64,000 nt of DNA, taken from positions 31,496,001 through 31,560,000 of the forward strand of contig OZ024753.1 of the NCBI GenBank assembly GCA_964016885.1. The letters are read 5' to 3'. This stretch comes from Eledone cirrhosa (Eukaryota). Shown one piece after another: positions 4,793-64,000 of the stretch; the first letter of the stretch is position 1; each line of letters opens with the position of its first letter. Made by a program: the position numbers and the translations under genes. Under the pieces are notes generated by a model that was not told where the DNA came from, searched no databases, and saw only the letters and a list, made by a program, of their open reading frames with translations.

Positions 4793-4858
4793 TATTTCAT
4801 TATATATATTTCAGGGATATCATATTAACAATATGCTATGCCATCCTCAGACAAAATA
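4793..4858 (-). ncRNA. Type I hammerhead ribozyme (family B), left arm copy
   Basis: Mirror copy of 5014-5079 with U instead of A at position 10.1. Confidence 0.68.
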
Positions 4859-5013: not shown

Positions 5014-5079
5014 TATTTTGTCTGAGGAAGGCATAGCATATTGTTAATATGATATCCCTGAAATATATATAATGAAATA
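5014..5079 (+). ncRNA. Type I hammerhead ribozyme (family B), right arm of a 373-bp palindrome
   Basis: UAUUUUGU-CUGAGGA-31-nt stem II hairpin-GAA-AUAUAUAU-A-AUGAAAUA: 8-bp stem I with 2 G-U pairs and a palindromic stem III. Confidence 0.7.
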
Positions 5080-7499: not shown

Positions 7500-7551
<52 letters not shown>

Positions 7552-7635
7552 GTTATTCCGGGTTGAATCGGAGGTAACCACAGTAAGTAAGGTACTCAAT
7601 ACATAGCAGAGTATAAAAGTTTTAATATAGATGAG

Positions 7636-7682
7636 ATTCTACAGGACTAGAACTGTTTCATTCATTAGAAATCATCAGGAAT
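7636..7682 (-). ncRNA. Type I hammerhead ribozyme (family A, second copy) within palindrome 7618-7741
   Basis: AUUC-CUGAUGA-U UUC[UAAU]GAA U-GAA-ACAG[UUCUAGUC]CUGU-A-GAAU. Stem I covaries with the 24218 copy. Confidence 0.8.
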
Positions 7683-7929
7683 GATGATTTCTAATGAATG
7701 AAACAGTTCTAGTCCTGTAGAATCTCATCTATATTAAAACTATATATATATATATATATTCTACTAACTAATAATTTCATCCACTTCTTTGTGTTGACGT
7801 TATAAAACATTTACATTTCACACGAACTAACATTACCTGAGACAGTTCTTCACCCGACAATTCTGTTTCTTCCTCAATGAATCTTTTTAATGTCTTGAGT
7901 CTTCCGCGTTTGTGTTTCATACTAGTGGG

Positions 7930-19107: not shown

Positions 19108-19307
19108 CTAAAGAAATTAACAAAATTATTTAGCCTGATAGTGGGGTTAAGAACCCTCGTGATGTGTTGGTGTAAATGGTAGCACAGTGGTCCGGATAAC
19201 CAAAGATGTGTGTTCGACTCCCATGTACGTCAATACTCCCCTTTTTCCATTTCTCCGAGGGTTCTTAACCCCACTATCAGGCTAAATAATTTCTTTAATT
19301 TCTTTAG
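19108..19307 (+). mobile_element. tRNA-like sequence (19161-19232) enclosed by 52-bp inverted repeats
   Basis: IRs at 19108-19159 / 19256-19307. The inner sequence has A box tggtgtaaatgg, B box gttcgactcc, a weak acceptor stem and a T5 run at 19242-19246. Confidence 0.6.
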
Positions 19308-22135: not shown

Positions 22136-24217
22136 TATTTGGTAAACACAGATCTGTGCTGATAGTACTGCGGTAGTCCGTCTCCGATTACCGGAATCGG
22201 CCCGTCTCCGATTACCGGAATCGGCGTCTCACTGGGCTGTGAACTAACTCTGTAGGTGTTTTGCCTCCTTCTACATTGACAACTGATGTACTCGGTGCCA
22301 CCCAAAGAGCCTGAAACTGGACTGAAGACGAAGCCATGTTGTTATGGATGAAACTTTTTAACCTGACACACTTGCTTTTACACACAACCAGAGGAGTTAC
22401 TAGGGTATGGCATGCATGGCACAAGCAATGGACGCCAGATGGATCAGATGTACGTTCTATTAAAGTCTGATCAATTATCGTCAGAGAGTGAAAAAAGAGA
22501 CTTTTTTCGGATGCATGACCTATCTTTGATTATCATGTTTATGAAGCACTATTCTGGCTGGAATAGTAAACCATTTATATAATTCATTAGGCCCATAGGT
22601 TATCTGAAAGATGGGTATCAAATATTTGATCCGCGGCCTAATTTCATTGCCTGCCATAGGCGCTATTTTCCCTAGTTACTTGTGGGGCGCAGGTAATCTG
22701 AAATAAACGTAAATGCAAGTAAATAAGGGACCTTCGATATATTATGTGATATGTGCGACAGTTGTTTTATCGACGGAATTTCCTATTCATGAAATTAACG
22801 AGCACCTGGCTGAGTTTTCCGAGACAGATGTGTGCTGATTCTTTACGAGATTCAGCGTGCTCAAGGCTATATTTTGGAAAGATAGATAGAAATCTATTCC
22901 ATAGGCATTCAACCAGTTTTTTCTCTTCCCACGAGGCCTCAGTAAACGGCACGCAAATTGAGATCTTTCCCGAAACCTTATGAGTGCAAAGCAAATCTTT
23001 GAACTAGTTTACCATGCAGGCTTAGAGAATTTGAAATATTCCAAACATGAAAAGTTCCTTTATTCTTTTTTTCTTTTAATTGATCACAAATATAAGCGGA
23101 GCCTCTGCAGAGATGTTCGCCTGGCATGAATCGCTTCGTCCCTACATTTCTATAATATATCGAATTGAACACATAATCTGAAACTTCCTGTTCCATTACA
23201 AGAGAATATAACATCAAAATTATCTTTCACAACATCACGTAGCATGAAAGTAATATTTCCTCTAAAGTAATTTTAGGAAAAAGGAAAAGAAAAGCAAAAA
23301 AAAAAAATTAAGGATAGAACATATTAAAATATTATAAACTGACACTAACGAAAACTTGCTCAAATTATTGATGTTTTCGTTTTTGAATTCATATCTTCAT
23401 TGTAGAAATCTATATGATATACAAATAAATAAACAAATATACAGAACGTTATTTATCAGCTTATGATTTCCTGAAAAAGAACGTCTGATTGTTTGTTTAA
23501 AAATCAACCATAAAAATCATGATTTCAAAGTTTCAAAATACGATCTAATGGATTGATGTAAACAAAAGAAAAGAAAAGCAAACCATATTATTTGGTAGAA
23601 AAGCAGCAATATGAGTTTAGTGTGATCAAATATGTAGAATTATAATTGTTTATTGTATTTATTAAATAACCTTATATTAAAAATATACATTTATAATCTG
23701 ACGTTTTTTCTTTTCCTTTTTTTTTAAATGAAGGCTGATGTATTGTATACAGTTTTTCATTTATTCATATAACGGCTGTTTCATATTTTTAAAGTTCAGA
23801 ATCATATTAACTTTTAGCAGAATTTCTCTTCGTGTATATTTTTATCTTCTTTTTCATTTTAAAGCTACTCTTTCACATGGAATCGAAAATAGTAAGCTAC
23901 TAAATTGTAGAGAAATACGTTATGGAAATATATGTATTCAAAGAGAACTGACTTTTTAAAAATCATATGTTTATATATATATATAAAATTTCGTTTACAT
24001 GTATTTAGATTTTTATTATGTACCGACCTGTTACACGCGTTTTGCAAAAGATTGGTACCTGGGTCACCCATAGGAGTTATGGCCGCGACTTCATTATCGA
24101 TCTGCTCCCCAGACTGGTCATGCAACAAAAAATATAGTTTATATATATATATATATATATATAATCTAAAAATGGCTTCTACAGGACTAGAACTGTTCAT
24201 TCGGGAGTAATCATAAG

Positions 24218-24268
24218 GGCTTCCTGATGATTTCTCCCGAATGAAACAGTTCTAGTCCTGTAGAAGCC
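24218..24268 (+). ncRNA. Type I hammerhead ribozyme (family A), predicted cleavage after A24262 (GUA)
   Basis: GGCUUC-CUGAUGA-U UUC[UCCC]GAA U-GAA-ACAG[UUCUAGUC]CUGU-A-GAAGCC: 6-bp stem I, intact core, 4-bp stem III. Confidence 0.85.
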
Positions 24269-24519
24269 ATTTCTATATTAAATATTTCTGCTATGTACTG
24301 AGTACTTACTGACTGTGGTTAACCCAGGATAAACTTGTATGTATGTATGATTGAACCCAGGATAAACTTATATGTATGTATGTATAAAGGTTTGTGCGTG
24401 AGTGTGCGTGTTTTGTCTATTATTTACACTGTAAATTTCTGAGATATCTGGACTTCAGTTGAAATCCCAATGAATCATAGAATGGTTTCACCGCACCCTC
24501 TCATTATTATGTATTATTC

Positions 24520-24620
24520 AAGGTTAACTTTCCCTTTCACCCTTACGGGGTCGATAAAATAAAGTACCAGTAATGTACTGGGTAATTGATGGCCTTGTGC
24601 CAAAAGTAGAAACAATTATT
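24520..24620 (+). mobile_element. SINE family 1, 3' half
   Basis: Core and tail match the consensus. Confidence 0.85.
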
Positions 24621-26176: not shown

Positions 26177-27207
26177 TAACTGCTATATTTCTTTCTCTGC
26201 TTCATTTCTTCCATCCCGCCTCTGTCACTCACTAAACACTCATCACCTATCTCACGAGCTGTATCTTCTTCTTTCCTTCTTCTTCCTCTTTCCTTCTTCT
26301 CCTTCTTTCTTTCTTCTTCTTCTTCTTCTTCTTCTTTCCTTTTCTTCTTTCCTCTTTCCTTCTCCTTTGTCTTCTTTTTTCTTCTTTCCTTTTCTTTTCT
26401 TTTTTCTTCGTTTTTGTCTTCTTTCTTTCTTCTTCTTTCCTTTTTCTTCTTTCCTTTTTCTTCTTTCCTTTTTCATCTTTTCCTTTTTCTTCGTCTTTGT
26501 CTTCTTCTTTCAATTATAACTTTATAGGAGACTCTCTGAGAGATTAACTTGAAGAACTCTTAAACCTCTATGTCTGTCGATTTCTTTAGTGTCTAGAATT
26601 TAATTAATGCCACAGATTCTTGAAACCACTGACCCCTCTCACTTTCCATATTTAACAAGATTTTCTTGTTTCATGGAATATTAAAGTTCATAGAATCTGA
26701 ACTACCAAGCAATGACATCTGCTTGCGGCTGTTCAAGATTTGACCATTGTCATAGAAAATTTCGAAAGTTTCGATGAAAAGATTTCTAGTTAAAAATGTT
26801 TTACTTATTGGTGCAGGCACCACTATGTTGAAGTGGGTGGGGCTATTCCAACTTATGTGCCTCTGAATATTTTGGATAGGCGATCCGGCTGGGGTATATC
26901 TGTAGGTAATATTTTCTATAAATCAACTCCAGAAGTGTTCGTTGACGGAAAGTACACATACACAGATATACACATCTAAACACATACACACAGACACACA
27001 CACACATACACACACACAAAGACACACACACATACATATATATTTATAGTAGATATAAATAAACACAGTAAATTGTGTGTTTAAAATTACGAAGGCTGAA
27101 AGACCACCTTGGTATGACGAATACAATCTATGAAACAAACGGAAAATACAAGATAAAAAATGAATTAAAATGTACAAACCGTTTCAATAATATATTAATC
27201 TCCCCTC

Positions 27208-63139: not shown

Positions 63140-63670
63140 AAATTTAATTGTAAAGAATATATTAATTAGGTATATATTTAAAAATTTATCTCAGTTTATG
63201 ATTACATGATATTCAGCAATCCATCTGTATAGGAATTTTAATTTTAAGCTAATTAAATAAAAATAAAAATTATAGGTTAACTAAATTAAAATTAATTTAT
63301 AAATAAGTTTCTAAATTGTACATTAATTAGGTTTATAATATTAAAAAATATCTGTTATTGATTACACGATATTTTGTTATATTTCATCTGTAAAGGAATT
63401 TTAATAAAGGGTTAAAAAAACTAAAATTAATCTATAAATTAATTTACAAAGTATATATTAATTATGTTAATAATATTTAAAAGTTCTTCACTATTTATGA
63501 TTACACAATATTTTTTAATCTCATTTGTATTAGAATTTTAATTAAATTAAATTTATAGGTTAACTACATTTAAATTAAATTATATTATATATTAATTTCT
63601 AAAATATATATTATTAATTAGGTTTATAATATTTAAATGTTTTTCTCAGTTTATGATTACACAATATAAT
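62740..63670. repeat. Degenerate AT-rich tandem repeats (~110-155 bp spacing) downstream of the PLE ORF
   Basis: Recurring aggttaactaaattaaaa (about 62750, 62970, 63080, 63273, 63557) and tttatgattacac-like motifs (about 63195, 63356, 63495, 63651). Confidence 0.55.
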
Positions 63671-64000
63671 TAATTCCTGTCGCTTATTTAATAGGATATC
63701 CTTAGATTTCATTATTTCAAATAGTTCTTGGGAACATAATCTACATTCATTTCTATTATTTTGATAAGGGGTGGCTCTTTTGAGCACACTCCAGGTCATA
63801 TCATATTCTATATTCTTATTTCTATAACTATTAATTTTTTCTGCTAGAGATGTTGTATTAGCCAGTGCGGCATTTTTAAAACTATGTTTGTGGGTATTAA
63901 ACCTTACCTTAAAATTGTTAGAAGTAGCTCCTATATATGAGCAAATAGAATCTTTAGTTTTAACTTTACATTTATAAACTATGTTGTTAACCAGACAATT
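63614..64000 (-). mobile_element. 3' end of a Penelope-like retroelement ORF: GIY-YIG endonuclease domain, frame open from the window edge to the stop
   Basis: Manual translation from 64000: NCLVNNIVYKCKVKTKDSICSYIGATSNNFKVRFNTHKHSFKN...TSLAEKI...DMTWSVL...CRLCSQE...LLNKRQELIILCNH. It has IVY/YIG motifs, the conserved R...H, and the C-terminal CxxC/LNxxxE/CxH of PLE endonucleases, with no internal stop. Confidence 0.85.

Follow-up and report, generated by a model that had tools for sequence, protein, structure and literature searches.

The hammerhead motif at position 24218 is most probably a short, promoter-less insertion of the pseudo-LTR (pLTR) hammerhead of a high-copy Penelope-like retrotransposon (PLE), in whose subfamilies stem I has been kept paired. 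Transcripts of this element likely have the first base of stem I as their 5′ end. The window is the whole stretch of Eledone cirrhosa DNA that we analysed, 64,000 nucleotides of contig OZ024753.1 (positions 31,496,001 to 31,560,000). Both of its copies of the motif are type I hammerheads with an inverted arm and a common tail, and the original prediction of two hammerheads, each with an inverted partial duplicate and the same tail, described the sequence correctly.

The first copy (24218..24268, + strand) belongs to subfamily b and is identical to an ORF-linked copy, L227. In stem I, GGCTTC (24218-24223) pairs with GAAGCC (24263-24268). The core consists of CTGATGA (24224-24230), followed by U, and GAAA (24243-24246). 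Stem II is TTC/GAA with the loop TCCC, followed by U, and has a U·U at its base. Stem III is CAG-TTCTAGTC-CTG, followed by TA, and its 8-nt loop carries a CUAG palindrome; a stem III of four base pairs had been predicted, and we count three Watson-Crick pairs plus A15.1-U16.1. Cleavage is predicted after A24262. The inverted, tail-less arm of the same insertion (24161..24217, − strand) has a broken core (CUUAUGA, GAAC) and pairs with the ribozyme as a long hairpin. The element leader and tail continue to the outer end of the insertion (24269..24336, +; 116/124 identical to the b copy L225, with deletions). Also readable in the sequence are a repeated tail end flanked by (TATG)n units (24349..24372, +) and, at the left end of the insertion, the (TA)n target microsatellite (24140..24163).

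The second hammerhead belongs to subfamily a and lies on the minus strand (7634..7682), with ATTC at 7682-7679, GAAT at 7639-7636 and TAAT as loop II. The junction has shortened the 5′ strand of its stem I to AUUC, the source being AGAUUC. Its tail (7549..7633, −) ends in (TA)n, the whole arm being 134/139 identical to the a copy L015, and its inverted tail-less arm (7683..7741, +) begins inside the core and likewise ends in (TA)n. Both window insertions adjoin (TA)n. The stem III 20-mer matched four times in the window against 0.01 expected, at the two ribozymes and their two inverted arms. Across the family we found the type I core CUGANGA/GAAA/UH with three helices (96% of cells paired); the G10.1-C11.1 pair at the base of stem II is replaced by U·U in all subfamilies.

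An Rfam scan of the window at the gathering threshold reported no hammerhead model, only a tRNA-like match (32.8 bits, 19161-19232, +) that is possibly a SINE head. The sequence at about 24530-24600 may resemble an octopus SINE. A second hammerhead family is present in the window as an inverted pair (4793-4858, −, and 5014-5079, +) with the sequence TATTTTGT-CTGAGGA...GAAA-TATATA-TA, and has relatives in several of the genomic loci examined. Several further families occur in about 0.5 Mb of sampled DNA (L018, L024, L032, L058, L060, L063, L087, L103, L193 and others), many with a palindromic helix III (CTAG, TATATA, TGCGCA).

The hammerhead core pattern yielded 20,402 exact matches in the 3.0-Gb genome, about 2,000 of them in one array, and its reversed control yielded 0. 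The source element runs, in order, TATAAATA, 30 nt, hammerhead, tail, ATG, an ORF for reverse transcriptase (RT) and GIY-YIG endonuclease, 3′ UTR and hammerhead. The ATG lies 175 nt after the hammerhead core, and the motif is repeated after the ORF; in the long copies that we extended, the a-type motif recurs 2.6 kb downstream of the endonuclease frame. In tandem copies, hammerhead and tail directly precede the ATG. The b-type motif (GGCUUC/UCCC/GAAGCC) stood before the ORF in 5/5 matches of a ribozyme-to-ORF pattern (68-82% amino acid identity). Some relatives have an unbroken natural RT-endonuclease ORF of 713 aa from the first Met, with the motifs DKT, RWR, CxCX5C, CxxC/CxH, YRDD and YIG. 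As in EN+ PLEs, a single ORF carries RT and then GIY-YIG (1,404 full-length relatives), hammerhead pLTRs flank the ORF, and insertions have an inverted 5′-truncated arm and a tail at one end. A Pfam search of the element ORF gave PF01541 (GIY-YIG) below the cut-off and did not detect RT. Of 1,527 candidates, 40 were scored; the best-scoring endonuclease copies were 99% identical, which marks the family as young.

The ORF motifs fit the definition of the Hydra clade (DKT, RWK, CxCX5C, CxxC and CxH, no GxKF/Y) with RWR replacing RWK, a placement made by comparison of motifs. We looked for DKG and GxKF/Y in the element ORF and found neither. Insertion at (TA)n is also as in this clade, since 105/121 a-type arms end in (TA)n. 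The clade's tendency to sizes below 3 kb is not followed by subfamily a, which reaches about 5 kb because of its microsatellite 3′ UTR. The C-terminal endonuclease rules out Naiad, the lack of CX2-5CxxC and DKG rules out Neptune and Nematis, and ORF linkage with core conservation rules out a chance palindrome or MITE. At L031:5170-7090 the 3′ UTR holds about 1.9 kb of mixed TG/TA microsatellite, so the element spreads a microsatellite resembling its own target. Fragments of other Penelope-like ORFs lie in the window at 63620-63997 (−) and, more weakly, at 26788-26922 (−), with 41% identity over 128 aa.

We modeled the folding of the 24218 sequence, leaving aside tertiary contacts, Mg2+ and proteins in all figures. 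The isolated 51-mer was predicted to form stems I and III at 0.37 and all three stems at 0.04; in its minimum-energy fold, UUC pairs with the GAA of the core and not with its stem II partner. Two 51-mers were predicted to co-fold through ACAG-UU-CUAG-UC-CUGU at -28.6 kcal, against -9.3 per monomer. The suggestion that stem III permits a monomer holds in that the 8-nt loop III allows one, but these predicted energies favor a dimer over two separate monomers. Some activity as a monomer is possible for the bare 51-mer, because its 8-nt loop III is longer than those of the listed Hydra motifs, and the GC-rich stem I of this copy folds best. Published PLE hammerheads are described as weak, dimeric or protein-assisted (PMC4209133, PMC11167929). 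The axolotl hammerhead, which has the same U·U, was 22% cleaved in an hour as a monomer and performed better as a dimer (PMC7229834).

These features raise the alternative that the hammerhead is kept as a folded signal (for protein binding, as an RT stop or as a promoter element) with little or no cleavage in vivo. The U·U in place of G10.1-C11.1 and the 3-bp stem II would suit such a signal, as would the register shift, which can bury G12-A14 and leaves a predicted full active fold of about 4%. Few copies end at the cut site, and ribozyme mutations were without effect on insertion in vitro in a lizard element (PMC11167929). Against this, subfamilies that differ by 13-40% in their flanks all have the same catalytic core, and the axolotl U·U hammerhead does cleave. 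We consider a purely structural role unlikely, and a slow ribozyme that is dimer- or protein-assisted and processes the element RNA at another step the likely reading.

Evidence that the structure has been maintained comes from stem I. In 86 distinct promoter-bearing copies, a non-random sample pooled from several pattern searches, the stem I haplotypes were AGAUUC/GAAUCU (45), AGCUUC/GAAGCU (14) and GGCUUC/GAAGCC (12), together with two G·U intermediates and a bulged GGCUUU(C) type. Genome-wide, the fourth pair of stem I was A-U in 10,944 copies (array included), C-G in 1,982, A·G in 80 and C·U in 39, making 119/13,045 unpaired combinations. We then compared 39 of 46 distinct 51-mers, excluding seven rows (L229:+ and six bulged ones). 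Double-sided changes were seen in two pairs of stem I and in no pair of stems II and III; the shuffle control for this comparison ignores kinship, and many of the rows came from searches with patterns containing stem III. Covariation of pairing among genomic copies was thus seen in stem I only.

Between the ORF-linked copies L013 (subfamily a) and L227 (subfamily b), flanks were 78-87% identical, loop II 1/4, stem I 8/12, and the core with stems II and III 35/35. The four stem I differences make up two full compensatory pairs. By chance, the 35/35 identity would be expected at about 0.5% and the arrangement of four changes as two complementary pairs at 0.3%. As the original prediction proposed, this supports selection on structure rather than sequence in the source elements, resting on two stem I events; the compensatory changes are two subfamily-level events counted many times. 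The compensatory change that had been read from the two window copies is real between the source subfamilies, but the window pair alone cannot prove it, because the A of AUUC in the 7636 copy doubles as the last base of the opposite arm. Promoter-bearing copies outside the window do prove stem I covariation.

Paired changes might also arise without selection, by templated repair between the two stem I strands (template switch, quasi-palindrome). Junctions that use the stem I strands as microhomology occur (L086, L054), and the fourth pair requires two transversions with no pairing intermediate. Yet G·U intermediates are present at the sixth pair, and such repair leaves the 35/35 identity of the core with stems II and III unexplained. 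We regard templated repair as improbable and retain selection on structure.

The positions at which insertions break off bear on where the RNA starts. We took 90 distinct tail-bearing arms, selected by an exact 24-nt tail from the first 100 listed of 14,004 matches (first 37 Mb of contig C1), and counted positions relative to C3. Half of them (45/90) break close to where stem I begins, at -7..+8: 4 at -7 (a C common to the opposite arm) and 41 at -6..+8. The promoter is retained in 14, while 3 break at -44..-9, 10 at +9..+34, 5 within 4 nt of the cut (+39) and 13 beyond it; 53 of the 90 have an inverted partner. The edge is sharp at -6/-7. It is also seen genome-wide in a-type copies on the reverse strand, which is array-free: 4,608 reach -5, 1,905 reach -8 and 1,600 reach the TATA box, at about -36. 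Four subfamilies with differing spacers all have the conserved TATAAATA ahead of stem I, mostly at a distance of 29-31 nt (up to 33) from its first base. In 78/86 promoter-bearing copies stem I opens with a purine that follows a C; the six Gs belong to a type shifted by one base.

Judged from DNA junctions alone, the likely start of the element RNA is the purine at -6, with which stem I opens; G24218 would then be the first base of the source RNA. The spacing of TATAAATA and the purine after C fit this start, and the spacing agrees with the standard TATA-to-start distance. The same junctions suggest that the element RNA is mostly reverse-transcribed uncut, since the ends of stubs coincide with the RNA start and rarely with the cut site. 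Among 59 arms ending exactly at -6, the opposite arm explains 45. Eight of the remaining 14 junctions carry an extra G (two are possibly duplicates), a weak hint of a copied cap.

We also considered whether the edge is a 3′ splice site. Subfamilies a and c read T-tract...CCAG|ATTC or CCAG|CTTC, and the intron of Drosophila virilis Penelope ends at helix I (PMC4209133). Subfamily b has GG instead of AG, yet its arms likewise end at -6; moreover, arms contain the AG itself, and the 59 listed junctions are without a common upstream exon. A splice site is therefore quite unlikely, and we continue to read the edge as the transcription start. We rejected RT stalling at stem I, which should peak at the 3′ side of the stem and not at its 5′ base.

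How the palindromic stubs arise can be outlined from their ends. Clusters of 3′ ends lie +15/+28 and about +91 past the cut, with the same 105/121 running into (TA)n. The tail is on exactly one arm in 57/64 insertions and on both in none. Within an insertion the two arms are of one variant (loop II was shared in 30/30 a-type pairs), and this rules out two independent RNA templates for them. We propose that transcription would start at the purine at -6, and that the element protein would nick (TA)n and prime reverse transcription internally at the tail. Such nicking and internal priming were shown in vitro for the lizard element, where uncut RNA was the main template (PMC11167929). Where the RNA 5′ end is used, reverse transcription would run off at the capped end once about 140 nt had been copied. 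Second-strand priming or fold-back on the same template would supply another arm, without a tail, and head-to-head joining of the two would yield the palindromic stub seen in the window. The ribozyme would act at another step, as above. A rotifer pLTR has TATA and Inr-like motifs, and self-priming has been proposed for palindromes (PMC3846280). The tail word GTATTGAG(T/C)AC occurs in the region of window positions 24291-24306 and at L013:1568-1590, and also behind the hammerhead of the coral element Hydra-2_Amil (supplement of PMC8557442). It is a candidate protein-binding or initiation signal.

At its own locus the 24218 copy is likely inert. With its inverted arm, the locus was predicted to form a -72.5 kcal hairpin (z -14), and the predicted share of the active fold in place is about 1e-40. 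Even the 24210-24280 construct that had been suggested for transcription in vitro carries 8 nt of the inverted arm, with which the predicted active fold falls from 0.036 to 0.0003, about 100-fold. This copy had been called the best candidate for activity, a rank we cannot give to a promoter-less copy that is sequestered by its arm, has U·U in stem II and carries the standard subfamily b sequence found in L227. An active monomeric ribozyme at this locus is very improbable: the core is intact, stem I has 6 GC-rich base pairs, loop III has 8 nt and the isolated 51-mer is predicted to form stems I and III, but there is no TATA box, the inverted arm would be transcribed first, the tail has decayed as that of a neutral copy would, and the sequence is found elsewhere too.

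A search for arrays was prompted by a strand skew in the counts and by back-joints in DNA contigs. Head-to-tail junctions numbered 2,031 forward and 5 reverse. An array of 78-bp units extends from about 30,496,750 to 30,873,700 of contig C28 (L323-L333, L343-L344); both ends were read and nine inner 2-kb probes were positive, which gives about 377 kb and about 4,800 units if it is continuous. The units are subfamily a hammerheads and the array begins at an ordinary inverted-arm insertion; one subfamily seeded this satellite. We scored 337 units: the core is intact in 247, and in 129 of those every one of the 12 pairs is also kept. Changes in the core run at 2.7% per site vs 2.8% overall, a rate like that of the remainder, and on this ground we rejected selection on the ribozyme inside the array. 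A separate array of 7.6 units of the same 78-bp unit (L313:1377-1966, C1 at about 350.2 Mb) is possibly a transposed piece of the satellite.

A broader reading can be offered tentatively, and we rate it a little short of even. The hammerhead would be the first 51 nt of a capped RNA and a delayed self-decapping or processing switch, held off by the U·U, the register shift and the requirement for a dimer. Palindromic stubs would be strong-stop copies that record the RNA start and integration from uncut RNA, and the growth of one insertion into the ~377-kb satellite would be a retrozyme-like birth of an array from a PLE.

The closest published relatives are the Hydra-clade elements of Craig et al. 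2021 (PMC8557442), which include Hydra-1_Obim and share the C-terminal GIY-YIG, DKT, RW(K/R), CxCX5C and CxxC/CxH, the (TA)n targets and the pLTR hammerhead. Their hammerhead table also has CUGAUGAU...UGAA (U·U) and an ACAG/CUGU stem III, and U·U at stem II is found in published Hydra and axolotl motifs (PMC8557442, PMC7229834). Compared with the elements described there, the Eledone cirrhosa family differs from Hydra-1_Obim in hammerhead sequence, and has an 8-nt loop III with an inner CUAG palindrome (vs 1-3 nt), a tail of about 63-76 nt (vs 30-40), a microsatellite-rich 3′ UTR of 2.6 kb, an a element of about 5 kb (vs <3 kb) and a copy number of about 20,000. The PLE minimal hammerheads of Cervera and de la Peña 2014 (PMC4209133) likewise include thousands of dispersed motifs from truncated PLEs, with close opposite-strand pairs, families with compensatory changes, palindromic helix III and low expected activity. 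The present family lacks their conserved G10.1-C11.1, its helix III is longer, and on its 5′ side helix I begins at a predicted start site, not at an intron end. The PAc Poseidon element of Anolis (Frangieh et al. 2024, PMC11167929) shares two insertion ends flanking the tail, AT-rich targets and an uncut RNA template; it belongs to a different clade, and its ORF begins inside the ribozyme, not 175 nt after the core.

Like non-LTR retrozymes and hammerhead satellites (PMC7229834; bioRxiv 10.64898/2026.07.22.740005), the C28 and C1 arrays consist of head-to-tail hammerhead units from a PLE pLTR, whereas the window copies, with their head-to-head arms, are inverted and not tandem. The C28 array is far above the largest array reported in the bioRxiv source (300 units), has no TATA box and drifts neutrally. 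We found no description of this family, its helix I start site or its satellite in a literature search that left most subscription papers and repeat databases outside, so the family may already be catalogued.

Hammerheads in PLEs are already known, and our results confirm covariation at the subfamily level. The interest lies in the reading of the start site and in the satellite; the single window copy is of little interest alone. Insertions of this family scatter thousands of near-perfect hairpins, which would be dsRNA substrates if transcribed. The three natural stem I haplotypes form a ready-made compensatory series. The role of the hammerhead in PLEs has been stated to be unclear (PMC8557442). 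A young family with unbroken ORFs and thousands of junctions offers a genomic read-out of RNA start and cutting, and this read-out would make the role of PLE hammerheads directly testable.
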